DNA of 60,299 nt, filler included, from Basidioascus undulatus (Eukaryota): the NCBI GenBank assembly GCA_000826855.1. It is 6 parts of 6 records of this genome, joined end to end, with 100 filler letters (N's around TTAATTAATTAA, not from the genome) between each part and the next. Parts side by side here need not be neighbours in the genome. Positions count along the whole stretch, not along the records: positions 40,279 to 50,239 come from JTLS01001194.1; 5 more parts are not named here. One strand, given 5' to 3'. The translations under genes and the position numbers were made by a program. Every line of letters begins with the position of its first letter. The stretch's first letter is position 1. Of the stretch, positions 31,929 to 53,600 are shown one piece after another. The notes under the pieces were generated by a model. It was not told the DNA's origin, did not search any database, and saw nothing but the letters and a program-made list of their open reading frames with translations.

Positions 31929-32952
31929 CTGTGGGGGCTTGACCGCGAAGGGTTGGAGAAGACTCTCGGGTTCCCGATCGAGTGAGGATAGGGGATCTAT
32001 GTGCAGGTGCGGTGAGCCCTTGGTATTGGGCTGAACTGTTGCTTGCTTGTCATCTTGGTTTCTGCGATGCACATGTTTCTGATAACTCTCCCCGTGGAGT
32101 CATCTGCCTACCATCCAAACATACACACTCTTGTCCTTCCTCATCTATCTTCTTGCCCATGAGCACTCTGACATGCCGTGATGGACTCGATGGCAGCAGA
32201 GGGGGCCAGTGGATAGCCGGTGCTGCGCTCCGAGTCTCCGTACACTACCAGACGCTCTGCTTAATGAAAACCTCGACTACTGAAAATAGAGCTACCCCAA
32301 TATGGTATCCAAGCATGTTCCGACGAGGCAGCCCGATGCGTCCTCCGTTCCTTGACCAGGGCGCCAGGTGCCGGCTTGTATCTTCGGGTTGACGAAAGCT
32401 GAACTCTCGCGGTGGGTCGAATACTCTCCAGGGTCAGGTACTGTGTTGCCAGAGGAGTTTGGAGCAAGAAACAATGTTACTACAGTTTTAACCATGGGAA
32501 TTACCCGACTTCCGGCCACAAGATAGATAGGCGTGTCAAGACTGTGCGCAGACTGCCGTAGACTTGCGGCCCACTCACTTATCGGAGGAATTGCTGAGCA
32601 CCGTCAACCACTCAACGCGAAAGCTCTACAGCTCTACATGGCTCTGGCTCAGATTATGAAAGAAAAAGAGAGAGATGCGCTGCTAGCTTGTAACGCTCAT
32701 CCGCCGCCCGGCCAGTTTGCGCACCCCCAAGAAACCCCGCGCCGCCTTACCGCACTTGCCTCAATGCCAAGAACAACCTCGGGCGGCACAGCGCTGCGCA
32801 CCCCTCCCGTATGCACTTGTCGCTCATGCCCTGCCTTTGTGCCTGTTGTTCTCTTCCTTCTCTGCACCACCACCCTCTTTAACGAACACCACCATCACCC
32901 CCGCCCCCGCGCCTTCCGCCACCGACGCCGGAGAGCACACCGCCGGGCTCGC

Positions 32953-35714
32953 ATGCGCACACGACCGATGAAGCTCTTCTCCCCCTCCGGCTCGCCTCTG
33001 GCCTCGCCCCGCACGAGCTTCAGCATGGGCAGCCCGCTCAAGGCAGCGGGCATGAGTCGGCGCACCTCCCGCGTCCTCGTCTTCGCCGCCATCTCCTCCG
33101 CCGCGCTCCTCTTCCTCGGCTCGTCCCCCCTGCGCGCATCCGTCGTGCGCCATTCCGCTGCACCCGAGGGCAGACCCCACGATAGGAGCATCTACGACGG
33201 GCTCCCTCTGCCGCCTATTCGGAGCTGGCCATTTGGGGCAGGGGCTCAGGGGGACGAGGAGGGGGAGTGGTTCCCGGACTGGTTTGGGAATGTGGATGAG
33301 ATCGGACCGAGCCCGTATGATTACGTGCCGCGGAGGAGGGAGAGGAAGGCTAGGGTCCTATTTCTTACCGAGTACAATGGTGCGTCTCTGCTTGATCGAG
33401 GGCTGGTTCCTGGCTGGGCTGAGAGCGCCTTACCCCCCACACAGACTGTAAGACACACCAGCACGCTCTCCCTGCTTCCCTTCTGCCCTGTCCGCAATCA
33501 GTGGCACAGAGCGAAGGGGCAGGGGGCTGCCCTGAACTGTAGTGCTGATGGAAAGGGCAAGCGGACTCGTGCAGACCTGGAGCGGATGAACACCGCGCTG
33601 TATGAGATCGTGGACGCGGCGCTGCGGCATGCGTACGTGGAGGTAGACGTATGGGGGCTCGGCTGGAAAGGTTCGTTCTCTTTCACCTTCCTACCTTCAC
33701 CTCTTCCCCATCCGCTGAGCACGACCCCGCCGGACCTGACCTGACAGGCTGGGACGCCTCCCAGCCCGTCTCGTACAACCTCGCGCGGCGTGTCCTCCCC
33801 TCCGCAGGGCCCGGCGCCGAGCCAGTCGGCACGGGGTACTGGGACGTGGTGTGGACGTTTGCGCGCTTTGGGGAGGACGAGATGATGGACTTGCCTGGTG
33901 AGTCGTGCTGGGCTTGCTTAGGAAGGGACGCGCTGTCGCTGACCGGCGGGGCGAGCGCAATAGGTGGGAAGACACTGCATTTGCATCAGATTGGTGCGTG
34001 CGAGAGAGGAGGGCGAGTGAGTGGGAGGAAAAGGAAAGGCTGATGCGAGCGGAGGTGATGGTAATGGCAGGCGACTGCCATGGCGATATGAGCACTTGTC
34101 GGGTTAATGGGTGGTACCCGCGGACATCGAATGTGCGTCTCTTCTTTCGCAGTCCACCGTATTGCGCTCGCTTGCTGATACCGGGTTGGAATCGACAGAT
34201 CACTATCACGAAGTCCGTTTCTCTCGCACCAGCCCCGACGAACCGCACTGACGCCCCCTTTTCTCTCTTTCTCTGCATCAGATACGCCCACGAGCTGTAC
34301 GTTGGCCTTCGTGCCCCACCTCAGCCTGGACCGTGTATTTTGCTGCGGCAGCCGTGCTGACGTCCGCCCCGGCCCACGCGCAGCTTCGACGCCTTCGGCT
34401 CCTACGACTGGCTGCAGTCCAATTACCCCTCCTTCGAGATGCAGCTCTTCGGGCACAGCCCCGACGCGGCAAACGAGTGGGACTTCTACCCTCCGCGCCG
34501 GTGGGCTGACAAGACGCGGGACGCGACTGTGCTGGGGTTCGATGTGCGTTTCGTTTCCTGGGCGAGCACGGGCAGCGCTGGGGCTGATGAAATGGAGTGG
34601 GGGATGGCGGGATGGTCGGGAAACAGGGCTCATTCTACCCTATCCGCACGACGGTCACGGACGCGATCAGGGAGGGGACGACGTTCATCGAGCGGCACCA
34701 GCATCCTGGTACGCTGCGCCCCGGTTTCTTCCCCTCCAACTTCAACCTCCTGTTAACGCTCTACTCGACTCGCGCAGGATACACTATCTCCCACTCCGAC
34801 GACATCTATCGCCACCCGCCCGCGACGTACGACCCCGCGTCGCCGACGTACGAAAAGCACGTCGCGACGCGCAAGGACTTTGCAAAGTCTATGCGCGACT
34901 CAAGGGTCTGCGTGGTGAGTCCGGGTTCGAGTCTGAGGAAGGCGCTGCGGTGGGGTGTAGCTCGTTGAGCTGATGTGCGGCGGGTGCGTGTGTGCGGGGA
35001 TAGTTCGACTCGGCGCTGGAGCGGAAGGCGATTCGGAAATGTGGGTCGCAAGGTGACTGTCCTTCGCCTCCCAGGCAGTTTTGCTGATCCTCTGGCTTTG
35101 ATGCTTCGCAGATGCTCAAGTACGACAGGCGCCTTTAACCGGACTCTTCCGAGCTCGCTGAGTGCTGACATCCTGCGGGATCTTCCCAGGCGCTTCTCTC
35201 CGGTTGCGTGATCGCTGGCGACCTGCCAACGCAGCACGAGCGCGAGTTCCGGGACTTCGTAATTCAGCTCGAGCCCGAATGGGAAATCGACGTGTGTCTC
35301 GCCTCACCCTCCTTGCTAATCCATCTTTCTCTGACGGTCCGGCCGGCTCCCCCCAGCGCATCAACGCCGCGATCCGCGCCGCCCTTGCCGACCCGCTCGA
35401 GCTCAAGCGCAAGGCGCTCGCAGGCTTCGCGTTCGCCCGGCAGTACTACACCAACCTCGCCAAGGTCGACGGCGTGCTCGACCTCGTCAGCGAGTACCGC
35501 GCCGGCGCCCGCGGGTACGTCTGGCCTGCTGGCTTTTCCGGTGCGTCCTCTGCCCTCCCCATTTTTTTTTTTCCTCTTTCAGGCTGGTGCTGGAGTCGAA
35601 CTGACTGAGGGTTTGAATGATGGAACAGCGAAGTGCAGAACGTACTGGTCTGAGGGAGGGTATCGCCCGCCCTGGTGTGGGACGGAGGGCATGCGCGGAT
35701 TGGAAGGCCGATGA
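32953..35714 (+). CDS. Putative type II membrane GT-B glycosyltransferase, multi-exon
   Basis: N-terminal signal anchor RVLVFAAISSAALLFLG, then ARVLFLT, VDVWGLGWKG and GSFYPIR. The C-terminal part DFAKSMRDSRVCVFDS..ERKAIRKY..ALLSGCVIAGDLP...IRAALADPLELKRKALAGFAFARQYYTN resembles a GT-B (CgeB/GT1-like) nucleotide-sugar lobe. Confidence 0.6.
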
Positions 35715-38213
35715 CGGCGGGAGGAACTGTGATACTGGTAGACCTGCACGTTGGTTATTTAATGTGCTTAATGCTGTTTCTGGATGCTGCCGGAGCAGTG
35801 GTGCGCTGATGCCTGGGGTGACGAGCGAAGAAACGCCTAAGGACGTGCTCGCCCCGGCCCATTGCTCTTCCCGCTATCTGCGTACATTCGTGCATCATTG
35901 CTACTGTCTCTTACATAGTTCGGCTTTATCAGATGGAGTAAATAGCGCAAATGCGGCCCATTTGCATTCCCAGTGTTTCGAACACGCCTGGGGACGCAGC
36001 CTGCTGGAACGAGTGGTTGCCTCTGATCAGGCCTCTCGCCATTTGCTCCGCATATTGATTTGTATTCACCCACCTGGTACGACGGAGACTGGCTCATGGA
36101 GAGTTGGGGGAATTCACCGTGGGTCAGCATGAGGCACAGTGGAAAGAGTGCCAGTGTAGGACGCATGGAGAGCCAGACGTAGTCAAGAAGTGCGGTAGTT
36201 AAGGGATATATGTACGACACTTCTCGCCGTCCGCGACCTCCTCGCTCAAGAAGTTCCCGCACCCCCGCCACAACAAAGCGCTTGCGGGAAGACCTTCCCG
36301 TTCGGCGGCGAGGACACATAGAAAGGCATCGGACTCACTTGGTATTCGCTAGAATGGATAGAGAGAACGTCTTCTGCATAGGACTCGAGGACGCCGCCAG
36401 GTCGGCGACGGTACCCGCAGACCAGAATCTGATGACCACCTCCTTGTCCGGCCGGCGTATGAGACCGCCAGGAAGTCTCGCTCAAACAAGGGACGTGATC
36501 GAAAGTCTGCGGTGGGGTGGTTCGACGAGGAAGTGCGAGCGCGATCGAGTACGGGCGAGAAGTTCAAATCCTCACAACAGAGGGCGCGTGGGCAGCAGCC
36601 TTCGATTCGCGTTCGATGAACGATAGTGGATAGTTGATCAAAGACCACAGAGGAATTCCAAAGCGCGGGGCTGAACAGGTGAGAATGGTGGTAAGTGGAG
36701 AGAGGATGTTGAAAACGACGAGGGAGGTGAGCGACGGTAGATAAGGTAGATGTTTGACGGACTCCCGAGCGTACGTATGGAGGCAAATGTCGCTCTTCCC
36801 CACTTCGCCGTCGCGGCCTCTTTCACTGTACTTGTGCGGCTTGCGCTTTTTTATAGAGAAGGTGCTAGGAGGTCTGTCGAGAGCACAAAAGCGGTAACAC
36901 TTGCTATCGAAGACTCTTAAAACTGCACCATCGCTCGACGCCTCTTTCAACCTGCAAGCGACGCAGGGCGGCGCAGGGGAGTAAGCCACGATCGTCCATT
37001 TAAGCATGAGAATAATCAGTTTCCTTCACGGAAAACTTCACGAAAAAAGGCGGTGGGGTGCAAGGGCTGTGACTACCTAGCGCGGCTGCCAGCTGCTGCT
37101 GCGTCAACGAGCTGCAAGATGCACACTTTGCGCTAAGGCTGGCTTGACAACTTTCTACTGAACTTTTTCAAAGAATTTCAAGCAGTCCTGATATATATCC
37201 TCAGTAACGACCTTCGATCTCGACCCAGACGTTTCGGGCACTCATACAACACAACCCAAGCCAGCCTGCGGTCGCCAGCTCTGCAAGTCGCAGTGCTGCC
37301 TAGGTGTACTCATGAGCGGGTGTCGATGCCCACGTTTCTATACCAGATGGATGAGTACTGGTACTCGACGCGACTTGAGAAGAGTGGTCTAGAAAGATTC
37401 ACATCATTCGAGCTTGTTTTACTGTGCGTTGTGTTGCCATGTACCAACAAAAACCTGGGATCAGGTCACAGCTTCGAGGTCAAAGGTGTATGATATGTAG
37501 TTAGGCCAATTTTTACTTCCCGAAATTAACTAACTTGAACAGTACACGAAGGAGTCAACAGGCGTTCCAAGCGCGACATCCATGCGAAACTGGAAGCAAC
37601 TATTCGCCGAGGTCTCAGGTCAGTCACCGTTCGCCCTCTGGAGCTGACATGGTAAATTTTGTCTATGGTGTATCTGATGCCTCAGAGCTCCATAATTACT
37701 GCCGTTGCAAAGTACAGCTCCGATGTACCCTGCCGGCGTTGCGGCTAGCTGCTCAGGGAAGTCAGGAGAGAGACTGGCTCTGAACGTCCCGGCAGCATCT
37801 TGCATGTGTGCGTGATACTTCTGGAGTTATATATGCCAATCCCTACGTGAGTTAGTGGAAGCGGTCCGGGGAGGTCAGGACAAGGGCAATGAGGGACGGA
37901 GGGCGAAAAAAGTTTTTGAGACCCGGGCCGCCAGCCTGCAGAGCACCAAGTCCCGTTCGTAGAAAAACTGCAAACATCAGCGCTTTCCTCCTGTGTTTGA
38001 TTTGCCAAAAGCAGAGACCGTGATACCTCAGGAAGACCTTTATGGATGGTTGATGTTAGCCAGAAAGGCAAGAAACGAATAAGTTTGCATCCTGCTCGGT
38101 TGGTGGGCATTGAATCCAACTCCGCCGCCGCTGTCGCGCAGGCGCCTTCTCAGAACCAACTCCCGTCATCCCCTAGCCCTGCTCGCCTCTCTCATCGGGG
38201 AAAACCCCATGCC

Positions 38214-40178
38214 ATGTCCGCCGGACCACTAGGCAACCTACCCGGGCTCTACTACGATCCCATCAAGAAGCGCTACTTCCCGCTCGCGTCTCGCCCGCCG
38301 CCGCCACCCGCGGGGCCGCCGCCGCAACCGTCAGGCGGCGGGCGCAAGCGCAAGTCGCGGCGCGCTTCTCCACTGCTGCCGCGAACCGATTCGAAGGGCG
38401 GAGTAGTTGATGTTGATGTAACTATGCGGGAGGCGGCAGCTCCAGGGGGGAGGAGGGTGGGCAGGGGCGTGGCCACGATGATGAGCAGTTTGGATCGCGC
38501 GAGGGTGGAGCAGTGCGTCTTCTTCTTTCTAGTGACAGGGAGTCAGACTGGGGAACGCGCATGATCTCCATGGGGCGAAATAAGCAGTGATACGCTGTCG
38601 GCGCTCTATTCCCATCCACGCATGGTTCACCGGCACTCGATAGAGCTGTACGAGCCCAACTCGTCGCCGATCTCGTGCCTTGCCGTTCGTCTGCCTCATT
38701 TCACGCCGACCATCGTCCCTGGAGGAGCACGAGGTCTCAGTCTCGTGATTTGATGCACAGGTCGACCGCGAGCCAGGGCGCTGCTGGGCGGGCACAGAGT
38801 CGGGGTGGTTATATGGGCGGCGCGCAGGGGACGAGGGGTGGAGGAGGCTGATGGGGATCCGGCAGCGGGTGAGTAACCCTCTTCCATCGCAGTGCAAGAA
38901 GGATGTGGTGGGTGGGCGCTTATTGAAGCGTGAGAGAGGTAGATCTCGTCCGTTCATGTGTCGGGTGGGAAGGCGGACGGGCACCCTAAGATACTCCTGT
39001 ACGAACTCTTCATAGGTCCCCATCCATGCATTATGTCTATCCCTCCGTCGTAGTCATGATATTCCTGACAAATTGTCAATTTGTGTGCAGCGCGACGACG
39101 CAAGGCCCGACGCCGGCGGTACTCCTGACGCCCGTTCTGCAATCTGGCTCACATCACGAAGAAGACGACTCGGCGTGCGTCTGCTTCCTCACCATGTCAC
39201 CATCGCGATCGCTCACGATCGGTGCACGGTCATGCCCACAGGCCTACAATTCTCTTCAACCTCCAGCGCACATCCGATCTGCGTACTTCGGCCGTATCAG
39301 GCACCTCCGTCGCGCTAGGCGAGTCCTTACATCCTGCGGTATCGTCCGCAGCTCTTCCTGCTGACGAGAACTCGTTTGTGCCCTTCCGCAGCCGCCGATC
39401 GCCATATCCTGCACTCACCCTCGCCCGCTCACTCGACCTCTTTCGTGCCCATCTACAAGGCTTCCTCGGACGTCCTGACACTATGGCACGAACCCGTAGG
39501 TTGCCTCCTTATACCTTCCTTCACCTTCTCAACTTCACCTCAGCTTAACCTCCCACACTGTGTGCATTTTCAGGGAAGCGTCTACTCAGGCACCCGCTCC
39601 GGCCACGTCCGCGCGCACGACCTCCGCGCCCCGCCGCATAAGGCACGCGAGCTCCTCCAGCTCGCGAGCTCCGCTACGCACATTCAGACTCTGCCGGGCG
39701 AGCGGATACTGTGCGCAGCGATGAATGGCAATGTGAGTCTACTTCGCGGTGACCTGAAGTGACATCGCCCGAGCTGACACGAGCCGAGCAGCTCGACATC
39801 CACGACCTTCGGTTTGTCTCCGCGTCCGCCTCCAAGCCGATACTTCGCCTACAGAACCACGTCAACACTTACACACCCTCCCTTGTTCGTCTTCCATTCG
39901 TCCTCCTGTTCCATTCCTCTCACCCAGCGAATTCGCCGACCCCACAGCCAATAACTGTCACCCCCACGACCTCGCATGTCGTCGCTCGGGGCCAGGACGA
40001 CGTCGTGCGCCTATGGTCCGCGCGGTCGGGCGAGCTGCTACGGGAGGGGCTGTTTGGGTCGGACGCGCCCGCGGGCAGGGGTCACGGGAAAGTCGTGGCG
40101 ATGCGGTTTGAGAGTGAGGGCGACGAGGGGACCGCTGGGGGCGTGTGGGTCAATCTGAGTCGATCCGACGTTGATGAG
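38214..40178 (+). CDS. WD40 protein, DCAF4/Wdr21-like CUL4-DDB1 substrate receptor; 3' truncated
   Basis: N-terminal LPGLYYDPIKKRYFPL motif, DxR boxes (GTRSGHVRAHDLR, LDIHDLRF), and NHVNTY...GQDDVVRLWS. Confidence 0.8.
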
Positions 40179-40278
40179 NNNNNNNNNNNNNNNNNNNNNN
40201 NNNNNNNNNNNNNNNNNNNNNNTTAATTAATTAANNNNNNNNNNNNNNNNNNNNNNNNNNNNNNNNNNNNNNNNNNNN
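40179..40278. other. Artificial contig spacer
   Basis: N44-TTAATTAATTAA-N44. Confidence 0.99.
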
Positions 40279-40323
40279 GAGGGGCTCGACCTCAAGGGCG
40301 ACCTCAGCCGCCCGCCAAGCCCG

Positions 40324-40733
40324 TCCAGCGCAAGCGCACAGAGTCCGTGACGACCTTCGTCGGCGGCGGGGCGGACTCCATCTTCCGCCTCCTCCCGCGT
40401 GAGGCGCGCCCCGCGCTCCGCCGCATGATGTGCCCCGAGCCCCGCCGGCGCGCGACGTTCGCGGAGCTCCTCCGCGGGAAGGGCAACCCCGGGTGCTCGA
40501 CTGAGGGGCTCGACCTCAAGGGCGACCTCAGCCGCCCGCCAAGCCCGACGAGCGCGAGCGCGCCTGCGCGGCGAAGAGATGAGCAGGAGGTGGAGGAGGA
40601 GGACGAGGTCAGCGACGACGCTGCCGACGAGTGGCTCAGCAGCCTAGGGTCGTGCGCGTTCCGCCCGTCCCAGACTCACATCCACGTCAAGCTCCAGGCG
40701 CCGCAGGAGCCCAAGTCGCGCAAGTTCTTCTGA
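40324..40733 (+). CDS. C-terminus of a HAL/NPR-family Ser/Thr kinase; 5' truncated
   Basis: ADSIFRLLPREARPALRRMMCPEPRRRATFAELL (subdomain X-XI), then DEWLSSLGSC...HIHVK tail. Confidence 0.7.
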
Positions 40734-41627
40734 GCTCCCCTCTTCCGCCTCTCTTCCTCCCAACGCCGCCTTGTATCGATCACGACCGCAGCATTCCCAC
40801 ATGATGTCCATGCTTCGTTTCCTCTTCCTCATCCGCTTTGTTGCAATTCTACCGCCCCTTTCAAACGATCCATCGCTTCGTGTAATTCTTCTCTCCCTTT
40901 CCTCTACCCTACGCGCGGATTGATGTTCTCCCGTGTCTGCCTCCTTGTTCTATTCCATTGCCCTTCCCACTCACTTTCTTTTTTCCTTTCCTACCCCCTG
41001 TCTTTCGTTCATTCTTTCAGTCTTTTGACCTCGACTCGGCAGTGGACCTTTTGCCAGCTTCTTGCTTTCTTTCGTTCAACCTTCCTGCACCGTTGCTTCT
41101 TTCTTTTTTCTCTTTTTCTACCCCTGTGTTGCTCTCCTTTCCCATTTCCTCTCGAATCGGTTACCCTACCTGCTTGCTCGACGCACACCGGAGTCACGCA
41201 TTGACAGAATAGAATAATGCATCGTCATGACATGCGTCGCTGGAGGTCATGATTGATGGGGAAAACCACAACGAAGCCCGCTTGGCGCTGGACTGTCTTT
41301 TTTGGTCTTCTCCGACCGCTTTGCGACCGCGAGGTCAGGCTTGGCGATGAGCGTCGTCCGTACCGAGACGCAACACATGACGACTTAAGAACAGGTCCCG
41401 CTTGGCCATCAATCCGGCATGAGGCTCACTTCTTCGCTTTGTATCCGCACAACAAGATACGAAGCATGTGGCCCGCTCCTTCGCCCGCGGCTGGCCAGTT
41501 GCGTCCTTGGCTGCGTGCTGGCTTGCCGCTCTCTTCCAGACACCTCTACCTCTCCTCCAGAGTGTCTTCTTCAGCACCGTCTAAACCGCCCGCAGTCTCC
41601 CTCCTTGTAGTCACATCACTCCAGAAA

Positions 41628-43370
41628 ATGGTTAACGTCGCTGTCCTAGGTGAGCTGCGAATCCATCGTTGGGGGGTTTAGAATATGGATGCAGCTTGAG
41701 CACTCAACCGCCTCATATGCAGGTGGTGCCGGTGGGATCGGACAGCCGTTATCGCTGCTCCTCAAGCTGAACAAGCGCATTACTGAGGTCCGTTTCGCAT
41801 CTTGCCCCGCACGACGAGAAGGTTCACACGCTCTGTTCGGCCTGGCAGCTTGCGCTGTATGACATCAAGAACGCACCCGGGGTGGGCCGTTCGCCCGTTC
41901 TCCACTTTCACAGAAGATAACCTGACCAGGATCAACAGTCTAGGTTGCCGCTGACCTCTCGTACATCAACACTCCCGCTCGTGTTCGCGCGCATACTCCC
42001 GAGGCGGGTGGGCTGAAAGCAGCGCTGGAAGGAGCGAAACTGGTCATCGTTGTTGCGGGCTCGGCCAAGGTGCCCGCAACCCTGCATGCCGAATGATTCC
42101 TTACTGACGGATGTCTTGAACATTTCAGCTCGGCGATCGTATTGAGCTCCCCCTCGACAGTAAGTGTTGTTGGCCGTTGACAAGTAGTAGCACACGTGTC
42201 GTCTCTGATGCAGACTCGTTCCGTATACAGGGGATCAGCTCTTGTCCAAAAACTCCCCTCTGTGCCGGGACTTTGCCAACGCCATCGCCGACAACGCCCC
42301 GGACGCGTTCATCCTCGCCGTCACCAACCCGATCAACTCGACAGTTCCCATCTTCGCCGAGGTGCTGAAAGAGCGCGGCGTCTTCGATCCGCGAAAGTGC
42401 GTTTTCCGCCTTTTCTCGCCGTTGGAGGAGGTTAACCTCGGACTACGAGGTTAGGCTGTTCGGCGTCACCACACTCGATGCTGTACGCACATCTACATTC
42501 ATGGCGGAGAAGTTGGGGGTGCCAGAGACAGTCTGTGAGTTGGCTAGAAACCCAAATGTTTCCGTTCTTTCACTGAAAAGGCATGTTTGCTGAAATTTCG
42601 ATAGACGTTCCCGTCATCGGGGGTGAGGGCTTCTTCAATTCGTTCGCAGTTTGGAGCGTTACAGGACTGAGGCAGCCGCGTCTGTGTGCACTTTGATAGG
42701 ACACTCAAGGGGGACCACGATCCCCTTGCTTTCTCAAGCCAGACCTCACCTTGATAGACCCTTATCTCGCGAGGCTAGCGCGCAGCTCACCGAGGCGATC
42801 CAAAGGGGTGCTGACGCGGTCATTGAGGCCAAAGAGCGCAAGGGATCGGCGACGCTGTCCATGGTCAGCCTTTCTCTACCCCCAAAACACGCTTCGCTCT
42901 GTTTCTAAGGCGTGAGGGGCATACTAGGCGTACGCGACGGATGCACTCGTAAAGTCCATCCTAGATGCGGCAGTAAGCGACTCCGGGACGACCGTTTCGG
43001 CTTACGCGACGGCCGTCTCGGCCTACATCAACCTCGACGCAGATCGTGAGGGAGGAGCAACTATCAAGGAAGCTATCAGCAGGGACTTGCCGTACCTGGC
43101 CGTGCCCGTCGAATTGGGCGTAAGTGCGCCTTCTTGGACGCGTTCTCGCTCATGAGGCTGAAGGATATTCGATTGCAGCCGGAAGGCATTACCCGCATCC
43201 CCCCGCTTGGTCCACTTTCGCCGTACGAGACCGAGCTGCTTCAGCAGGCTATTCCCGAGCTTGAGCAAAGCATTGCCAAGGTCTGTACTTGATCGGTTCC
43301 ATCTGTAGAAGGTAAGACTGAACTATCGTTGGCGAGTAAACAGGGGATACAATCCGCTCGTCAAGTCTAA
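41628..43370 (+). CDS. Malate dehydrogenase (glyoxysomal/mitochondrial-type) family NAD-dependent 2-hydroxyacid dehydrogenase with an atypical substrate loop
   Basis: MVNVAVLGGAGGIGQPLSLLLK, LALYDI, VAADLSYINT, TNPINSTVPI, LFGVTTLDAVR, VPVIGGHS and GSATLSMAYA. TAA at 43368-43370. Confidence 0.92.
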
Positions 43371-44323
43371 GGACGAAGCGTCTCCGCAGCACTGGCACTG
43401 GTGCTTCGATCGTCGAACGATTTTATATTCTATCTGCCGTAATGTCGTGCCTCTGTGGCCGAGCGTGTCTCTAGTGCCTCTCTGTGGCTGAGCGTATCTG
43501 TAGTGGAAACATGAACTCGTTCAGAGTGCCCTTTAATCTAAAAGTGAATGCCTGAACACAGCTCAGGCCGACGCTCTTGGGGATAAACAGTTTCGAGCGC
43601 AGCATGTAGTATCCCATCAGCATGCTGCTTCAACATAGTCCCCACCAACCATCAGACACGAAGTAACCAGTGTATAATACTTCCTCCAGTTTTATATTGT
43701 GGTAACGGATTCAGTCGATGGACATGACAGGCTGAGGTGTGTGGACGACCTGCGGCGGCGAGTGAGGGATTGCTGGATGGCACTCTTGCTAGGCACCACG
43801 GAGGACAAAAAGAATAGGAGGAGCCCCGGTCCCTCTATACTTCAGTCTCTCTATATCGCGTACGTATCCCGCTGTACTTGGCTGTTTGTTGAAGTTGGTT
43901 GAAGGTTGTGCGTGGGAGTCTCGCCGCATACCTCGCCTTCCTTTTGTCCCCACTTGACCTCTCCATTCTCTACATCGTCGCTCAGCCTTCTATTGCTTCA
44001 TATGCCTTCACTTGCTCCCAGGTCGTTTCACCTTGTCAACCCTCTCTTCTCTAAGAGCTCCAAACCCTCACACCGCGCGACCATGTCAATGTCCTTCGCT
44101 TCGTCGGCCGTCGACGTTCCTCTCTCGGCCAACACCCCCGACGAACCAAGGGTGCACATCTCGCTCGCCTTCCAACCTTCGTCCTACACCGCCGAGACCC
44201 CCCATGCCGCAGTAATCGCGATATGAATACTAAGCTCAGATCTCCGATTACCATGTATGACCAGGGTATTGCCAGGCCGTTCCGCCTTCACGACCGATGC
44301 CCAGAAGCGGCATTCAAAAATGG

Positions 44324-44398
44324 ATGGATGCGGAGCTTAGGTTAGTAGATGGATGCGGAGCTTAGGTTAGTAGATGGATGCGGAGCTTAGGTTAGTAG
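44324..44398 (+). repeat. Tandem repeat, 3 perfect copies of 25 nt
   Basis: (ATGGATGCGGAGCTTAGGTTAGTAG)x3. Confidence 0.97.
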
Positions 44399-45175
44399 TT
44401 TATCTGAAGGTAGCTCTCTGGAGCACAACGCTGATGTGGCTCTTTTGTTGACCACTGCAGGTGGAAGTTCATGTGGTTCAGCTCGGCGGAGGACCCGACT
44501 TGCGGCGAAGTCTTCTGCTTCGGCGATCCTAGTAGGGTGCACGGGGAGGCTTCGAGATAGACTTACGGTGAGCGCACCCTGGTTGCCACAGCCTGAAGGC
44601 ATGCTGATGGTCCTAATTTTGTGCCGTTCCTTTAGGTTGGGAGCCCCGAATTCCCAGTCAGGAAGGAGCCCGACTCTGCGTGGGCCGACCCGAAGACTCG
44701 CAAGATGCTCGTTGCCCGTGAGCAGTCACATTCGATTCCCGCAGCGAGGTTACGCTGCTTACTCCAGCTGCTTCGGACAGTAGAGATTGCGCAGGGGAGC
44801 GAGGATCCCTGAGGTACTTCTCAAAATGGGAGCAGCGTAGCAGAACATCATCAGCAGGACTGGATGGGTTGTCTCTTTAAGGAGACCTGAGGCACCGGGT
44901 CAAATGAAAGGCAAAGCATAGATAAGGGGGGACTTTAAATTCGAGTAGCAACCCTGTAACAGGCTGGCACGCCGGGTGTTGCTGTACATCAGCTGAGTCA
45001 AATTTTCAGGACAACTCTGTATAGCAAAGCGGTCGCGACCAGTTGGCAATGATTTTCACAGGACCACAAAAGTCTTTTCAACTTTCGACGCGTTCCTGCT
45101 TCCTCCACGCCATGCATCAGGCAAACCATCCAAGTTCAACACTGACGTTCGCTTCCCTCTTGCCTTCGCACCACC

Positions 45176-46177
45176 ATGTCCTCCTCCCCCACCTCTCCCT
45201 CCCCTCTCTCCGCACCCCCCAGCGCCCTCCCTGCATACGAAACGAAGTCCCTCCCGCTCCTGTCGCACCCGTTCGGGCCACACACGTTCCACCTAACGCA
45301 AGCGCAGAGCACGGGCGAGACGGGCTCGACGCTCTGGCTGAGCGGGCAGGTGCTCGCTGCGTACCTGTGCGAGAACGGCGCGCTCAGCGGCCGAAAAGGG
45401 AAGGGGAAGAAAGTCCTCGAGCTGGGGAGCGGGATCGGGTACACCGCGTGTGTGGGGTCTTTTCTGCTTCGAGACTGATGTGCAGGACGGACTGATGTGT
45501 GGGGTGAGGAGAACAGACTCGCCCTCGCCTCTATGGGGAGCGACGTCATGGCGACCGACCAGCAGGTCGTGCTCGACTGCGCGCTGCTTCCGAACGTGAA
45601 GCGCAATGCGAAACTTGCGGGCGGGCCGGACGGGTGGGGGAGGCTGCAGGTCGCGAAGCTGGACTGGGCTGAAGAGCAGTTTTCATGGGAGGACCAAGCT
45701 GGTGAGTTCTTTCATTCTACCACTTTTCCCTTACGATTCTTACAAATGCTTTAATTTACTTTTTCGGTTTATAGGCGACGATGCGTCTTCCTCAGAGCCT
45801 CTGAAACCCCCATTCGACTTTGTGGGCCGTCTCTCTCCTTGCACCGTCTTCGCATTCGCTCACTCACTCATGTCTCTCAGATAATAACAACCGACACGTT
45901 CTACCACCCTCCCTTGACTCCCCTCCTCCTGAGGACGTTGCACACGCTCTCCACACCGCGGACCAAGCTCTACGTCGCGCTCGAGCGGCGCGACCCCGCG
46001 CTGATCGACGATGCGCTGCGTCAGGCGCGCGGGGACTGGGGGTTCGACGTCCGCCGGGTGGATGGCGAGGCTGTGCGGCGCGCGGTGCGCGCTGGGCTCG
46101 GGTGGGGCGCGGGGGAGGAGGACGGGTGGGAGGGCGTGGAGGTGTGGAAGTTTGCGAGAAGGAGGGAGGGCAAGTAG
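45176..46177 (+). CDS. METTL21/EFM-like protein lysine methyltransferase (Methyltransf_16)
   Basis: TGSTLWLSGQVLAAYL, VLELGSGIG, VMATD, KLDW, PFDFIITTDTFY and ALERRD. Confidence 0.88.
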
Positions 46178-46417
46178 CACAGCAGACGGATGGATGGACG
46201 TGCATGCGTGCTGCTTTTTCCAGTGTGAACGGGAATGAATGCGCGTGTGGGTATTGCGGTAAGGTCATTATGGAGAGTAATGCGGGGTATTCGAGAGAGT
46301 GCGTGGGATGGAACAACGGTGGGGAGTGGGGTGGGATGGTGATGCGAATGTCATGCCTCGTCCTTCAGAGGTCCGCCCATCTCGCCAGTCAATCGCCGCT
46401 TACTAGTCACCCAATGT

Positions 46418-47127
46418 TTAATGAGCTTCCTCCGGAAGACCCAGGACAGTAGAGCGAATGACATACGAGACCGGCTCCGACTCGTCCACTCCCTGGTCCT
46501 CCTTCCTAGTCGAAACGAGCTGCAGCTGCCGATCGAACCCATGTGCGGCTGTCCTCCCCCCACCCCGCACGATCAGCATCCTTCCCCTCCCCGCTCTCTT
46601 TCCACCCATAATCCCCGTGCCCAACTCACCAAGGTCCCTCCACGTCTCCTCCTCATCATTCTCCGTCTGCAGCTGATAGATCTGGACAAACCCGCGGAAC
46701 GTGAGGTTGCCCTGGTCATCGCAGTCCATGAACGTCCGGATCTCCTCCTTCGCCTCCTCGCCGAGCGCCGCGCCGTTCGTGTCCTTTGCCCAGCGGTCCA
46801 GGGCCTCGTCGCCGAAGTAGGCTGCGGCGAGATCGGACTCGGGCAGCGGGGAGGAGGTGCTGCTGGGGGAGGAAGCGTAGCGGAGGAAGATGGCGCGGAG
46901 GGCGGACTCGAACTGCGGCGGAGGGAAAGATTAAGCTCCTCCGTGGATGATATAGGATAGGATGGAGAGAAAAAAGAAAGAGGTACCTCGTCAGTGATGT
47001 CCCCCTCCTCATCCAACAGGTTCACGTCCGAGCGCCTTCCCTGGCGGACAGCGAAGTCGCTCGGCGTGGGTGGCCGCTCGTCCACCGCAGCCGCGACGAG
47101 GTTTTTGATCGGCGAGGGCACGGGCAT
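46418..47127 (-). CDS. Small conserved fungal EF-hand-like protein
   Basis: LLDEEGDITDEFESALRAIFLRY...WAKDTNG...MDCDDQGNLTFRGFVQIYQLQTENDEEETWRDLAAHGFD. The 3' end could extend to 46351. Confidence 0.75.
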
Positions 47128-48628
47128 GTCGGATGGGGAAGAGAGGACTTTAATGCTCCGCCGTACAACGGTACGAGGGAATGCGGAGGAGGTGGGGGTG
47201 CAGGACGAGGACAAGCAGACGAGGACTGGTTGCTTCCGGCGGCTAACAACCTTTCGCGGTCGAAACGCCAAACACTCCCAGTGAGTGAGCATCCGTTCAC
47301 ATTTCAGCTGCTATATCGTCTCTATTTTTATCCTTTTGCCTCCCTTGTGATACAAGCTACTCAATTGATATTTGAACTGCTGAAGGACGTATCAACCTCC
47401 ACCCACTACAATTAACCCAAATGGTAAGCTACATAACCTAGAGTTGGTCGGAGGAGAGAGAAGAAGCAACGACGGCACATCCCTGGAACTTGAACCTTGG
47501 GGATGACGCCGACCATTGCCAGGAGGTCACGGCAGGTGCAACGGTCGAGATGGTTGACAGCCGTAAACTGGAGGTGTATGGGGCTGCATGCAGATGGATG
47601 ATCGCCCTGATCCGCCCCGCAAAGTCGGGGGTTGGTAACTAATACTAAAACTTGGGCGTGAGCCACGGAGATAACTGTGGGCCTAGGCGGAGAGATGGAG
47701 ATGGGTCAGGATCTCGACGAGGCCGGCATCGGAGAGAAACCGATGGGCCAAGTGGCTCTCCGCATGATCGGAAGGGATGGTGATGGCGGCGACAAGGCGA
47801 GAGTACTGAATGGAGTGAAAGAGCTTGCAAACAACCGAGACGCGGAGGAGATCTCGTACGATACGACGGCAGGCAGTCTAGCGTCGGCAGAGAAGGACCG
47901 AGAAGATCGAGAATAAGATCAGTTCGACGGCCAGACCATTAAAATGAGCAGGCTTGGTATGTGGCGGGAGCGCAGATGAGAACAAAATGGCAAAGAAGCT
48001 GGAGGAGAGAAGGAGCAAGCAAAGGATGGGAGGAGCGGGACAGACAGTCTCCGTTTCCCGGAAGCAATTCGAGAAGCTCCAAGCCGTGGAAGGATGAACT
48101 ACAAAAGCCGGGGATGCCCGCACAGGAACCTAACAAGCATCAGCCAGCCATAAGGCCGCAGAACCGATGAGAGATTGAGGCAAGGTAGACATGGAAAGGA
48201 AAAGCCGAGAAGGAAGTGGGCAGAAACCTGGAGATGAAGGTCTGCGCCGGATTGTCCGCGGTTAGGCTTGGCCGACACACGAGCTGCCGACAACGAGACC
48301 AGCGTCAAACAGGCATGGCCACCTTGGCACGGGCGACCGTCCACACCGGTGCAGCGCGTGGCGAAACGCCGAGCTGATCAAGTCGACCGGAAAGAGAGAG
48401 CACGGAGATCGACCATAAAACAGGAAAGGATTTACAGAAAGAAATGGCGATCGGACAGGACACCAGGGGATAGGACTACGGAACACGCAGGGAAAGAGAA
48501 TGTCACACGAAAGGGAGAGCCGCACGCAAAGCCACAGAGTAAGAGGGAACGGTATGATAATAGAGAAAGAACCCGCGCCCCTCCGCTCCCCCTTCCACCT
48601 TCCCCCTTGTACGGCCGTAGTCCCCTCT

Positions 48629-49115
48629 CTACTCTCCATCTCCCAGATCCTCTTCCTCATCCTCCTGCGCCCGCTCGCGATCCTCGGCCTGCGACATCCG
48701 CGCCTTCTCGTCCATCCCACGGCAATCGATCACAAGCACCTCGTGCCCGTTCAACGGCAACGTATCCACCATCCGCTCGATATCCTCCACCGCGACCCAC
48801 TGCGGATGTACATGTCGAGACACACGTTGCAGTCAAGCTTCTCAAGGAGAGAACGACCATTGCGCGGCACGCTCATCTGGCTAATGTAGACGAGGGCGAG
48901 AGGGGGGCGGCTGGGGAAAGTCGGATCGCGTAGAAGTGGTGGACCCAAACGTACTCGGTCAGCTTGCGCTTCTCGATTGAGCGGTCCTTCAAGGTCGAGC
49001 GTACCCGATGGCCGTTTGGGAGCTGGACGCGCCCCCAAACGGCGCCGAGAGGGAGGGGGTCAGGAGGAGGAGGGTAGCCTTCTTTAGTGAAGTACTGACA
49101 CAGGTGAGTCTGCAA
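48629..49115 (-). mobile_element. Possible CACTA/EnSpm-type transposase C-terminal relic
   Basis: WGRVQLPNGHRVRS...YVWVHHFYAIRL...LVYIS...VAVEDIERMV resembles the C-terminal region of basidiomycete CACTA transposases. Frames are broken and no DDE core is seen. Confidence 0.35.
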
Positions 49116-49858
49116 GCGCCCCTCGCTGTCAGTTACAAGCCGCTTCCTTCACTTGCCCCGTTCTGCCACCTCCCGTTTCCTCACGCACCTTCTTCGCCTT
49201 CTTCTTTCCGAGCCCCTCCTGTTCATTGCCCATCGTTGCCGCTCTCCGCTTGTCCTTCGCTGCTGCCGGTGCCTGTTTTCCGGCGGGAGGAGGCAGAGGC
49301 GGGCGCGGGGAGGGGGCCAGGAAGACCGACGGCGTTAGTTTACTCGAGACTAAGCGGAGGAGGAAGAGCAGGAGCCGAGACACGGCATGAAGCCAGAGTC
49401 AAAAAGGGCTCAAGCAGATCTTTGACCTTGACGCTGCCGGCGTTGTTTCCTGACGCAAGTGAGGAAGGACCGCCATCAGTTCCTGTATCTATGACCGTTA
49501 TCATCGTGCTCCATAACGCGGGTGTCACCTTGGCCGCCATATGCGCATCAATCTCCCTTTGAACTTCCTTCTGCATGGCCTTCCGCTGCTTGTGTTCCTG
49601 CTCATTCTGTTGATTCCGACCACCAGGCCGTCAACGTTAGCAGGACGTTCTCGGTCGTGAGAATGAGGGATGAGGCGCAAAGCATGTGAGCAGTACGCAC
49701 ATTGCCTTGCGTCCTGAACACGATTTGCGAGCCGTAGGGCACCTGATGTTTGCTACACACTCAAAGGCAGACCGAACGCGCTCTATGCTGTTCGTTCAAT
49801 TTGCCCCAGCAATCCCACCGCATCCTCCAACCTCCCTTCCTCCACCCTTCCCCATCCC

Positions 49859-50191
49859 TCAGTTCTTCTTCGCCGCCCGCGCCGCCTGGCGCTCAGCAAG
49901 GTCGACGCCGACGAGGATCTTGCTGGCCTTCCAGAACTGGACGACGTTGATGACCTGCTTGATGAAGCAGACAGGGAAGCTGAGCAGCGCGACGAGCTGC
50001 GGCCACGTCAGGCCCACGAGGACCTGCTGCAGCGCCGTCGCCCACTCCGCAGGGAGGAATGGCGCGAGTGCCTCTGGGATGCGCGCGAGGGGAGTGAGCC
50101 ACAGCCCGATCGGCTGCAGCTTGGACGAGGCGATGATGTACAGGGCGACGAAGAAGATCTCGTTGCCGGCGCAGAAGGCGAAGAGCGTAAG
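49859..50191 (-). CDS. PIS1: Phosphatidylinositol synthase, last exon
   Basis: LFAFCAGNEIFFVALY...FPVCFIKQVINVVQFWKASKILVGVDLAER*, the PIS C-terminal signature. Confidence 0.9.
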   Translation of the reverse strand, partial: LTLFAFCAGNEIFFVALYIIASSKLQPIGLWLTPLARIPEALAPFLPAEWATALQQVLVGLTWPQLVALLSFPVCFIKQVINVVQFWKASKILVGVDLAERQAARAAKKN

Positions 50192-50239
50192 CTGCGCGGG
50201 GGAGGCGTTAGCTGGGCGTGCTGCTGCGTGTGGGAAAAC

Positions 50240-50339
50240 NNNNNNNNNNNNNNNNNNNNNNNNNNNNNNNNNNNNNNNNNNNNTTAATTAATTAANNNNN
50301 NNNNNNNNNNNNNNNNNNNNNNNNNNNNNNNNNNNNNNN
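50240..50339. other. Artificial contig spacer
   Basis: N44-TTAATTAATTAA-N44. Confidence 0.99.
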
Positions 50340-50667
50340 AACATCGTCAAAGCGCTGCGTATGCGGGTCACAATCTAATTTCTCATGAATACATATATTA
50401 CAAACACAACGAGCCGATGCAAGAACGCGGAAAAGAAGGGCGAGTACCCGGACGACAGGCACGCCTGTCGACAATCAATGATCCAGAAAAAATACAGGAA
50501 AGCCAAATGTCCCAAGAGAAGAAAGAAAATATCAGAAATCAGGGATCCGAACGATCAGACATATCGACGCCGCGCCGTATTTTTGCCGAGACCGAGACCA
50601 CTTCCAGCGAGAGACGAAGTGCGAACGACGCATGGCCGCAACATTCCCCAATTCCACCCCAACGAAA

Positions 50668-53600
50668 TCACGAGTTCGACCCGAGGGACGAGATGAGCTG
50701 GTTCCAGAACGACGCGCCGTCGTCGGTCCCGCCCCCAATGCCGTTCCCGACGCTGTGCCCGCCCACCCCGGCGTTCACATTGCCCATCATCTCAGGCACG
50801 CCGAGGCCGAGAAGCATCGCGATGCTGTCCGCGGGCGCGTCATGCCCGGGCCCGCCCAGCCCGCCGGCAGTCCACTGCGACGCGGTCGCCCCGCTGAAGC
50901 CCACGGCATCATTCTGCGAGCTCCCGGTGAGCGGGTCCGAGTGCGGCGCCGGCGCCGCGTTCGGCCAGTACCAGCTCGCCGTCGAGGTCGCGAGCGGTGC
51001 CGTCGGAGGCAGCGGCGGAGGAAGGGTTATAGGCGTGGGGTTGCTGGCTGGAGACGGGGATAGGAGGCGCGCCAGCGAGGCTTGAGACGACGAAGCCGGC
51101 TGCGAAGTCGCTGGGAACGGCGGGTTCGCGAACGGCTCGGACGCGGCCGGGGCTGGCGAAGCAGCGCCCGCGCCTGAGCTGGAGCCTGACTTGGCGCTGC
51201 TTTGGCTCAGGCCGAGGAGGAGATTAGCGCTGGCCGTGCTGGCGTCGGGTTGGGCGAAGCGCAGACCAGGATCGCGCTCGGTGCTCGCGTCGTCGCCGCT
51301 GTTCTCCTCGTCCCTCGACGGCGGGTCCATGTCCGAGCGTCGAACTGGTTGCGGAGTCCTCTTCGCGGCCTCCTCGGCCTTCTGCCGGAAGAGTTGGATG
51401 ATGCGCGTCTCGTTCACCACCGCTCTGCGTAATGTGAGGCAAGGTCAGAGAACTGTGGAAGGGAAGATAGGCAGAGTACGTACTCGTCGCCGGGGAAAGA
51501 CGGTAGCGCTTGCCGGTCGGCGATAAACGTATCGAGGATGTGCTTATATTGCTCCGCGTCGGGGCCGTGCTGCCGAATAAAAAACATGATCAGATTGGGC
51601 CGCGCGCAAGAATAATCACGCTCGGCGTACCGGCTCCAGCAGCAACGCAAGTGCCGAGATCAGGGTAGAATTGAAGATGCTGTCAACCGTCGTTGCGCAG
51701 TAGTCAGCCACCGACCGTTCGCGTCCCAGCAGACGCGACGAAGCCGCACGCACCGGTACTGCCCGCCTCCGAACCTCGCCAAGTTGCCCGACACCTCGCG
51801 CTTGAGCCGCTGACGCGCCTCAAAGTCCATCTTTGCGCTCTCGAAGCACGCCTTGCGGCTGGGCGCGAAGCGCGAGCTGTTGAGCTTGCGGAGGACCCAT
51901 GGACGGTGGAGCGAGATGCGCGTGAACATGCACTCGACGTGGAGAAGGAAGCGGTGTGTCGGGAGGAACGAGTGCGACGCGTCCAACGAACGGTCCGGGT
52001 TGTCAAAGCGGCTTTCGGAAGAACGCGTCATGAGCGAACGACGGGTCGGGTTCAAACGGCCGCAGACATACTAGTGAGGAGGAAGGCTGTTGAGGAAGCT
52101 GACGATTTCGCTGTCAAGGCGCAGGACGTTCGAGTAGCTGCAAGTCGCCGCCGTCAGCTTCTGATCGCCCCGGATGCGGGAATCGAGAATGCCAAGCACA
52201 CACCTGCTAGGCGCCCTCAGATTGAGGAAATGCTCGTTGCAGCGCGCGACGATCTGGACGAGCGTGTGACGCAGCACATGCGCGGTCATGACCGTCGGCG
52301 TGGTCAAAGGCTTCGGCACCGGCGGAGGCGCGTTCTCGCTGCCATCGTAGAAGTCTGCATCGTCGACCTGCAGTAACCGCGCACAATGGGTCAGACCTGC
52401 TGTCACAGCACAGCGGATCATAGGAGAACATACATTGGAAAGAGGAAGCGTGTCCGTGTAGGCAGGAATGATGCATGCCGGACGGCCGAGGATGAGAGCG
52501 AGCGTGCTGCGCAAGCCAGAAAAACAAAGTCAGCACTGACTCTGAATCGTGCGTACCCCTTCGCACTCACCTGTCGGCATGCTGCAGGTAGCTCCACAGC
52601 CTGCGGCGGTATTCCGTCTCCCAGGCGGACAGACCAAGCTTCGCACCGTCCCGGTGCATTCCGATGCTCTGCGCCGTCCTGCAGTATCGTTACAATCAGC
52701 ATTCGGTTCCCAAAACTCACGTATCGCTCATGCTATGTACCGGATAGCCGCGCCCAGCTGAGCCCAACATTCCGTGAGCTTGCGCTCGTTGATGAGCAGG
52801 CGAGTGCTGAAGACCACCCGATCCGAGAACGTCAGCCTCCGACGCCTCCGAGTCCAGCGCATCAGAGGCGTACTTCAGCAGGCGCGTAATCACGAGCTCT
52901 AGACATTCGCCCTGGACGGCAGTCGCAATGAGCGCGCTCCTCCTCGCTGAACGCAAACAAACGACAGTTAATACAAGCACTCCCGGACTGTGACTTTGAC
53001 GACACGACTAACCCGACCAGTACAGCTTGAGCGCCCAAAGCCTCCTCTGGTTCTCGCCGCGGACGCTGCCGACCGCAGCCGTCATCTCCTCGCCTGGGGC
53101 GAAGCGGATAGTGGTAGCCAGAACGATGAAGACGAGAGGCAAGTACCTGAAGAGCGTTATTGTCAGTCCCTGCTGCGGCTAGCCGCCACATAGACCGAGG
53201 GAAGATGCACTTGACGTCCACCGCCTCGATGGCATGGCGCTTGCGGCAGATGTTTTCGTACGCGGCGCGGAACGCGCGCTCGTCCTGCCGTGTATCAAGT
53301 CCTCCGAGATGAGCTTCTCAATAAATCGAGCGAGCCAGGCCAGGGAGAGGCAATGACGCACAATCGGATAGCGCGTCCAGTTGATGTGCGCGAAGAACGA
53401 GTCCACCAGGCCGTCGGCGATGTGTTTCGCAGGCAGGTCGTTGACGAGCTCGACGAGCGTCTGCGGGCTGACGCCGCACTCCTCCACGAGCCTCGCGAGT
53501 TGCTCGGCTGCAGATCGGCTCTGCTGCGTCGCATGCGTCTGGAGCTGGCTGGTCGCATCCTTCCCTCCGACCTGTCCGTCCACCAAGACCCACAATCAGC

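Follow-up and report, generated by a model that had tools for sequence, protein, structure and literature searches.

The lactate dehydrogenase (LDH) and malate dehydrogenase (MDH) pair is a textbook case of the evolution of enzyme specificity. Throughout this family, hydride is delivered to C2 of the substrate, His195 and Asp168 provide the proton, Arg171 binds the carboxylate and Arg109 is carried on the closing loop; in MDH, the C4 carboxylate of oxaloacetate is bound by Arg102 on the mobile loop. The present analysis concerns an MDH-like gene of the basidiomycete fungus Basidioascus undulatus in which this loop is rebuilt, lacks Arg102 and is encoded largely by a micro-exon of 31 nucleotides (nt). 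The gene lies on the plus strand of a 60,299-nt stretch of DNA (assembly GCA_000826855.1; six parts of six records joined end to end, filler included), which is referred to below as the window.

The function of LDH is reported to have evolved from MDH on at least four occasions (bioRxiv 10.1101/2023.06.21.545977), and the apicomplexan route, which consists of a five-residue insertion together with R102K, has been dissected residue by residue (PMC4109310; bioRxiv 10.1101/386029). In particular, R102K alone is reported to have lowered the oxaloacetate activity of AncMDH2 more than 100-fold, and the insertion swings residue 102 away from the active site, where Trp107f takes its place; the insertion and R102K together were sufficient when combined in the ancestral MDH and insufficient in modern MDHs (Boucher et al., 2014, PMC4109310). 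[quoted passage not shown] Several other members of the superfamily have been described as retargeted at the same site, namely FrsC, which has a five-residue insertion, Ser102 and Asp107f and for which phenylpyruvate and hydroxyphenylpyruvate are given as the only substrates, the HicDHs with their extended loops, and the aromatic hydroxyacid dehydrogenase of Trypanosoma cruzi (TcAHADH), which has Ala102 and no insertion (PMC9299796). The fungal LDHs described so far are presented as canonical LDHs gained from bacteria (PMC10583557), and none of the titles and abstract openings returned by a full-text literature search concerned an MDH-derived enzyme of a fungus in which Lys102 or a loop insertion occurs.

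The MDH-like gene spans positions 41628-43370 and consists of 12 exons which, on the basis of GT..AG boundaries and homology, form a coding sequence (CDS) of 1026 nt, that is, 341 codons and a stop, with no internal stop; all 11 introns are of the GT-AG type and are 58-77 nt long. The locus is best explained as an intact gene whose product is an NAD-dependent L-2-hydroxyacid dehydrogenase of the cytosol and which would derive from a fungal presequence-less MDH of the mitochondrial/glyoxysomal type; the product is probably no longer a good malate dehydrogenase. We put the chance that the gene is a paralogue encoding a functional 2-hydroxyacid dehydrogenase of altered specificity at somewhat less than even.

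The rebuilt loop lies in a zone across which the gene is readable only by splicing because stops are present on both flanks. Read straight on, the frame of exon 4 (41944..42069) meets a stop after 8 codons (open reading frame (ORF) 41944..42096), and the frame of exon 6 (42231..42396) opens only downstream of the stop at 42206-42208 (ORF 42209..42454). The removal of intron 4 (42070..42128, 59 nt) and intron 5 (42160..42230, 71 nt) leaves the 31-nt exon 5 (42129..42159), which encodes LGDRIELPLD and base 1 of the Arg109 codon; this last base of the micro-exon completes the split codon A|GG, an Arg directly before DQLLSKN. The frame alone is little proof of such an exon because 80 stop-free in-frame paths lead from exon 4 to exon 6 when any GT and any AG are admitted. 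The splice sites themselves are more discriminating. When the loop zone is scored with a splice-site weight matrix derived from the nine remaining introns of the gene, the two best of the 18 GT sites are 42160 (GTAAGT, 6.0 bits) and 42070 (4.5 bits), with the third at 0.9; among the 10 AG sites, 42128 comes first with 5.5 bits and 42230 second with 5.3 bits, the third reaching 2.9. The micro-exon path is the sole two-intron, in-frame, stop-free path in which all sites score at least 2 bits, and an equal or better two-intron in-frame path was found in none of 3000 shuffles of 42070-42230, compared to a single-intron path in 86 of the same shuffles.

Other features of the zone are in line with this path. 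Intron 4 has the donor GTGCCC and the acceptor TTTCAG, intron 5 has the donor GTAAGT and the acceptor ATACAG, and both contain CTRAY-like branch motifs, CTGAC 21 nt and CTGAT 22 nt from the respective 3' ends, the strict motif being present in 5 of the 11 introns. The GC content of the micro-exon (0.61; 0.70 at third codon positions, GC3) is close to that of the CDS (0.60 and 0.69), and introns 4 and 5 (0.51 and 0.49) are close to the value of 0.51 across introns. An internal control is provided by exon 8 (42605..42622), an 18-nt micro-exon flanked by introns of 70 and 77 nt: splicing of this tiny exon yields the family-invariant VPVIGG directly before the catalytic His, and hence the organism splices such tiny exons in the same gene. 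There is no intron at the site of exon 8 in the canonical MDH gene of a metagenome relative, L001. Micro-exons are reported to be common in Agaricomycetes, with about 9% of the gene models of Coprinopsis cinerea containing an internal exon no longer than 15 nt (PMC12230235). In silico, and as a feature of the gene model, the phase-consistent micro-exon at 42129-42159 that was proposed in an initial annotation of this DNA is confirmed. That annotation had also named transcripts spliced to restore an RKPGMTR-like loop as evidence that would overturn its reading; such splicing was rejected as a candidate given that none of the 80 paths yields such a loop, the nearest alternatives using a donor at 42139 (-2.6) or an acceptor at 42146 (1.7).

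An origin of the insert by tandem duplication was considered as well and rejected, the local score between 42040-42162 and 42163-42245 being 14 against a shuffle mean of 14.0, with 280 of 500 shuffles reaching it. The 3' end of intron 5 (42206-42230), when read in the frame of exon 6, gives CRLVPYTG before DQLL, which bears a faint likeness to the canonical PRKPGMTR; tblastn pairs T-G-D-Q-L-L across intron 5 and exon 6 with the canonical T-R-D-D-L-F, and the acceptor AG of intron 5 falls inside the would-be Thr-Arg codons of the old loop. This segment may be an intronised remnant of the old loop, the likeness being weak.

The lengthening of the loop is apparent with two independent rulers. In the coordinates of the TIGR01772 profile, residues 1-41 of exon 4 occupy positions 39-78 and exon 6 begins at position 86, so that the protein has 12 residues where the profile has 7; with chain 8j5d as the reference, 14 residues separate the conserved Gly and Asp, compared to 9. 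In both cases, the loop exceeds the canonical length by five residues, which presumably makes it equal in length to the apicomplexan LDH loop, going by the Plasmodium loop quoted in the initial annotation. The Lys that ends exon 4 aligns with the Arg of AGLPR/AGVPR (position 102) in all four full-length canonical MDHs, and the profile coordinates agree. The protein accordingly lacks two hallmarks of malate dehydrogenases, Arg102 and the canonical loop length between AG and RDDL, and it differs from canonical L-LDHs in having Lys rather than Gln102. It shares with the apicomplexan-type LDHs both Lys102 and the five-residue insertion between 102 and 109, but the residue two before Arg109 is Leu (...PLD-R) in place of Trp107f.

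The catalytic set is retained, including Arg109 (the split codon A|GG, in RDQLL), Asp168 and Arg171 (LDAVR) and His195 (GHS), and the same holds for the cofactor motifs GGAGGIGQ (GxGxxG) and the Asp that ends strand 2 (LALYD), as well as for the Asn of NPINS. The neighbourhood of the site is altered: GGHSG has become GGHSR, IQFGGDEVV has become IQRGADAVI, and DGAGSATLSM has become ERKGSATLSM, and two new arginines are located at or near the active-site lid, one in the GDRI segment of the loop and the other two residues after the catalytic His. With the loop rebuilt and the closing surfaces altered, the pocket for the substrate side chain would be rebuilt too. The initial annotation had listed the change of the malate-specifying Arg102 to Lys, the five additional residues, the Leu two residues before Arg109, the intact catalytic residues and NAD motif, and the GHSRG and GADAV changes near the active site; each of these holds in the spliced model.

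The exons of the model are as follows. Exon 1 (41628..41649) contains the start codon and encodes MVNVAVLG(G), which aligns with the M-KAVVLGAAGGIGQ starts of two presequence-less MDHs, P0005 and P0006; exon 2 (41723..41787) carries the NAD-binding GGAGGIGQ motif; and exon 3 (41849..41881) encodes LALYDIKNAPG, including the NAD-selecting Asp, and is followed by an intron placed as in L001 (throughout, intron positions in L001 were assigned by eye). Exon 4 ends in ...VVAGSAK, where Lys replaces Arg102, and covers positions 39-78 of TIGR01772. Beyond the micro-exon, exon 6 encodes (R)DQLLSKN...TNPINSTVPIFAEVL... and the remainder of the NAD domain, exon 7 (42455..42534) encodes LFGVTTLDAVR with Asp168 and Arg171, and exon 9 (42700..42863) encodes (G)HSRGTTIPLL...IQRGADAVIEAKERKGSATLSM with the catalytic His and its altered neighbours. 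Exon 10 (42928..43119) carries a 21-nt in-frame tandem duplication (42987-43026; period 21, 1.9 copies, 84% matches, score 59), which adds seven residues (VSAYATA/VSAY...) to the C-terminal domain immediately before ...INLDAD... Exon 11 (43179..43280) is bounded on both sides by introns placed as in L001, and exon 12 with the stop (43344..43370) encodes the C-terminus ...SARQV, without an SKL-like end.

Membership in the LDH/MDH superfamily is indicated by the recognition of both domains together with the catalytic residues and the NAD motif. In Pfam, Ldh_1_N (PF00056) matches exon 6 with 31.1 bits (cut-off 27) and Ldh_1_C (PF02866) matches exon 9 with 29.9 bits (cut-off 22.6); exon 4 matches Ldh_1_N with 17.3 bits, under the cut-off of 27, and exons 10 and 11 have no match, so that three of these five exons give a match and two of the five exceed the cut-off. 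The top NCBIfam model on exons 4, 6 and 9 is the equivalog TIGR01772 (MDH_euk_gproteo), with 24.7, 45.6 and 36.1 bits, respectively; the sum over these three singly scored exons is about 106 bits, to be set against a curated cut-off of 273 for the whole protein. For exon 6, the LDH model TIGR01771 (L-LDH-NAD) reaches 15.4 bits versus 45.6 for the MDH model, and the best Protein Data Bank (PDB) chains are chloroplast, mitochondrial and glyoxysomal MDHs, with E-values from 4.8e-13 (8j5d) to 1e-6, compared to 0.0026 for an LDH chain and 0.0035 for the 4plh/4plt chains, which we take to belong to work on apicomplexan LDH ancestors. These chain scores speak against descent from the alpha-proteobacterial LDH-like MDH clade. 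The assignment of the gene to the MDH family, specifically to the mitochondrial/glyoxysomal/gamma-proteobacterial type, is supported by these comparisons, in agreement with the MDH-family origin put forward initially.

Within this type, the affinity is with fungal MDHs that lack a presequence. The N-terminus MVNVAVLGGAGGIGQ matches P0005 and P0006 (the latter is named Taphrina deformans MDH by its source), and a ...LDxxxxGG... insertion in the C-terminal domain is common to these two proteins and missing from the presequence-bearing P0007. The MDH-like protein is 44.1-47.5% identical to P0005-P0008, whereas the latter are 58-89% identical among themselves; the canonical types differ less from each other (58-65% identity) than from the MDH-like protein (44-47.5%). 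Among the 189 columns that are invariant in P0005-P0007, 119 are kept, including Arg109, Asp168, Arg171, His195, the Asn of NPxNS and GxGxxG. L001 is a canonical MDH gene that encodes ...VVIPAGVPRKPGMTRDDLF, and at least three of its introns are located at the places of introns 3, 10 and 11 of the MDH-like gene, with one more within a residue or two of intron 6. These shared positions imply common ancestry of the two genes, with introns 4 and 5 being additions peculiar to the MDH-like gene. Two further observations on L001, again made by eye, are a 3-nt micro-exon AAG (Lys) at L001:2258-2260, between DDLF and INAG, and a protein end ...PKL (L001:3310-3345) that might serve as a weak peroxisomal signal.

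Translation probably starts at 41628, without a presequence, because the in-frame ORF upstream of this ATG (41256-41627, 124 codons) shows neither codon periodicity, with GC contents of 0.59/0.57/0.57 at the three codon positions versus 0.64/0.465/0.687 in the CDS, nor a Pfam match. The last 54 codons of this ORF (from an ATG at 41466) are devoid of Asp and Glu and have a presequence-like look. A presequence derived from the ORF was rejected on the same two grounds and the segment was treated as a 5' untranslated region; the absence of a mitochondrial presequence, as initially proposed, can be graded as likely. An out-of-frame ATG near 41420 might open a short upstream ORF. Further upstream, 430-830 nt from the start, there is a pyrimidine-rich tract on the plus strand (40800..41199, 73-80% C+T), which may be promoter-like in the manner of fungal promoters. 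In a search for an antisense gene, four minus-strand ORFs were found over the MDH-like gene, none of them with a Pfam match.

Several lines of evidence suggest that this is a living gene, which is predicted to be expressed and to have an active product. The CDS is unbroken despite an identity of only 44-47.5% to canonical MDHs, whereas neutral decay would, by a rough estimate, leave many stops; the catalytic and cofactor residues that were checked are kept, all but Arg102, while 37% of the invariant columns are changed; the insertions are in frame, comprising five additional codons in the loop and the 21-nt duplication; and the catalytic Arg is rebuilt along the best splice path. In the enzyme so predicted, NADH would donate hydride to C2 of a 2-oxo acid and the proton would come from His195/Asp168, with Arg171 gripping the C1 carboxylate and Arg109 being brought in on the mobile loop at closure. 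Lys at position 102, the longer loop and the altered docking surfaces would combine to form a remodelled side-chain pocket, the loop itself being contributed by a micro-exon that appears to sit between two introns without counterpart in the canonical gene.

As for the substrate, the cost of R102K, the dependence of the apicomplexan enzymes on Trp107f and the cases of FrsC and the HicDHs together suggest, by analogy, that the enzyme has likely lost efficient use of malate and oxaloacetate and is unlikely to reduce pyruvate in the apicomplexan manner. Pyruvate would be no better a guess than a larger 2-oxo acid of hydrophobic or aromatic character or than some other substrate. A more specific version of this scenario holds that the apicomplexan solution, Lys102 plus exactly five residues, was independently re-invented in a basidiomycete on another MDH scaffold by means of a new 31-nt micro-exon between two new introns, with the bases of the old loop left as intron, and that the outcome is a Leu-lined L-2-hydroxyacid dehydrogenase for pyruvate or for a larger hydrophobic or aromatic 2-oxo acid. 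We regard this version as tentative and on balance doubtful; if true, it would add to the convergent escapes from malate specificity as the first to be encoded by a micro-exon.

A number of observations weigh against a functional dehydrogenase of altered specificity. The protein sits on a long branch, with 70 of the 189 invariant columns (37%) changed, and the loop region of the canonical L001 gene is one uninterrupted exon. Both donors that flank the micro-exon, with 4.5 and 6.0 bits, are weaker than every one of the nine donors used for training (6.4-9.7 bits), although the latter scores are inflated because these donors were scored by their own matrix, and the intron 4 donor GTGCCC is the only one of the 11 without G at +5. 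Searches for orthologues also weigh on this side. With exon 10 against longer proteins, 0 of 219 candidates matched at E<=0.001; with exon 9 against 1.84 billion representatives, there were four matches at E<=0.001, three of them fragments of ordinary MDHs (51-58% identity; GGHSG or GGHAG) and the fourth P0001, a protein of 1482 amino acids (aa); of the 35 candidates for exon 6 among longer proteins, 4 matched, all canonical and 48-52% identical; and a metagenome scan with exon 10 gave one canonical MDH locus among the 595 pattern matches listed. The protein of the MDH-like gene itself was likewise not returned by the protein searches with exons 6, 9 and 10. The missing orthologues weigh little because a helicase ORF in the window is without a close relative too (the named relatives listed are all from basidiomycetes, Tulasnella, Auricularia and Cantharellus first, at only about 40% identity) and because the representative protein library merges sequences into clusters at 50% identity. 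Finally, the 42 ORFs of at least 110 aa in the 32.5-52.4 kb region contain no other Pfam match at E<=0.001, and at this threshold none is contained in 112 shorter ORFs (45-109 aa) located up to about 5 kb from the gene in both directions. Such a region devoid of Pfam matches would suit a fast-evolving or a decaying stretch.

Many of these observations could be accommodated by a dying or dead copy, in which some 140-160 nt of foreign or expanded sequence broke the loop exon and the micro-exon is a lucky reading, unused or yielding an inactive protein. The uninterrupted loop of L001, the weak intron 4 donor, the lack of an orthologue in the searches with exons 6, 9 and 10, the long branch with its 70 changed columns and the lack of recognisable neighbour genes in the Pfam scans of 32.5-52.4 kb would all fit a gene in decay, and so would the stops met on both sides by a contiguous reading and the resemblance of ...VPYTG-DQLL before exon 6 to the canonical ...PGMTR-DDLF, like a leftover loop. 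We nevertheless judge a dead copy to be clearly unlikely given that the remaining 11 exons and each of the 22 splice sites are preserved at a protein divergence above 50%, that none of the 3000 shuffles offers a comparable two-intron in-frame path, that the split codon rebuilds precisely the catalytic Arg, that the 31 nt are exon-like in composition and that the lengths of the two indels in other parts of the CDS are divisible by three. Conversely, the enzyme might be alive and still a malate dehydrogenase, with the loop Arg (GDRI) or the Arg after His-Ser meeting the C4 carboxylate of oxaloacetate and so preserving dicarboxylate binding; the gene would then encode a cytosolic MDH that evolves fast, as does its lineage, and that is possibly the only one of its type in the organism. 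The complete catalytic set and the two new arginines at or near the lid are compatible with this possibility, a construct with the insertion and Arg102 is reported to be bifunctional (Boucher et al., 2014, PMC4109310), and the identity of only about 40% between the helicase and its relatives suggests a lineage that may be poorly sampled or fast-evolving. We consider a retained malate specificity unlikely, however, in view of Lys102, a change reported to have cost AncMDH2 more than 100-fold in oxaloacetate activity (PMC4109310), of the identity of 44-47.5% to both canonical types compared to 58-65% between those types, and of the concentration of changes in the loop and the docking surface.

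The initial annotation proposed an independent conversion of MDH into an LDH or a hydrophobic 2-hydroxyacid dehydrogenase, after the fashion of the apicomplexan enzymes. This proposal is partly supported: the independence from the apicomplexan lineage stands (4.8e-13 for an MDH chain versus 0.0035 for the 4plh/4plt chains), whereas the Leu in place of Trp and the two new arginines, which could retain dicarboxylate binding, speak against an LDH of the apicomplexan plan. A true LDH of that plan, with Lys102 turned outward and the residue two before Arg109 packed against the methyl group of pyruvate, is very unlikely: Lys102 and the five-residue insertion between 102 and 109 are both present, and these two changes are reported to have sufficed in an ancestral MDH background (PMC4109310), but the key Trp is Leu and the scaffold comes from a different MDH clade. 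A functional 2-hydroxyacid dehydrogenase of altered specificity, probably with another 2-oxo acid as its substrate, remains the interpretation that we prefer.

The surroundings of the gene provide little context. No second MDH locus is detectable in the window by tblastn with P0006 and P0007, and no biosynthetic gene cluster is visible near the MDH-like gene in the Pfam scans. The region 32500-52400 could contain either lineage-specific intron-rich genes or few genes at all. Domain matches elsewhere in the window identify a YDR124W-like helical domain (3982-5226, minus strand), a copia-type gag fragment (9604-10050, minus strand), an AAA_11/AAA_12 helicase (12940-14179, minus strand), a DEAH-type helicase with HA2 domains (22512-23175, plus strand), MUS81 with HHH_8 and winged helix domains (28695-30195, plus strand) and a gene of the SGL family (SMP-30/gluconolactonase/LRE-like; 58413-59627, minus strand). 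Paired 44-base runs of N recur about every 10 kb (9999-10098, 20076-20175, 30143-30242, 40179-40278 and 50240-50339); none overlaps the gene, and these pairs look like masking rather than assembly gaps.

What would be new here is a known trick, Lys102 plus five residues, on another scaffold and carried by a micro-exon. A second natural case, in a fungus, in a different MDH clade and with Leu for Trp, would test the repeatability of the apicomplexan route and its dependence on background. If the interpretation is correct, a micro-exon can act as a vehicle for the rebuilding of an active-site loop, and gene finders will probably overlook an exon of this kind and report a broken or mis-spliced gene; should the gene encode an ordinary MDH or be dead, it would be a curiosity of a single genome.

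The closest parallel among the described systems is the apicomplexan LDH (Plasmodium falciparum, Toxoplasma gondii), which is similarly MDH-derived and combines Lys102, five additional residues between 102 and 109 and a retained catalytic set. The parent of the apicomplexan enzyme, however, was an alpha-proteobacterial LDH-like MDH, whereas the fungal gene is of the mitochondrial/glyoxysomal type, and the fungal protein has Leu for the essential Trp107f and an insertion located on a separate micro-exon. FrsC, the L-phenyllactate-forming dehydrogenase from the biosynthesis of FR900359, is described as another member of the L-LDH/MDH superfamily with a five-residue loop insertion and a residue other than Arg at position 102, features that accompany its exclusive use of aromatic 2-oxo acids (PMC9299796); it is bacterial, is encoded in a biosynthetic cluster and has Ser102 and Asp107f, in contrast to the fungal gene, which has no visible cluster and combines Lys102 with Leu. 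The HicDHs and TcAHADH likewise represent the LDH/MDH fold retargeted to hydrophobic or aromatic 2-oxo acids via position 102, the loop being longer only in HicDH, but HicDH is reported to stem from LDHs, and TcAHADH to belong to the cytosolic-type MDH clade, with Ala102 and no insertion (PMC9299796). The fungal presequence-less MDHs (P0005, P0006, P0008 and the L001 gene) share with the B. undulatus protein the fold, the motifs, the N-terminus, the ...LDAD..GG... insertion and, in the case of L001, at least three intron positions; the B. undulatus copy differs from all of these in its rebuilt loop with Lys102, in GGHSR and IQRGADAVI, in the seven-residue duplication and in the two extra introns.

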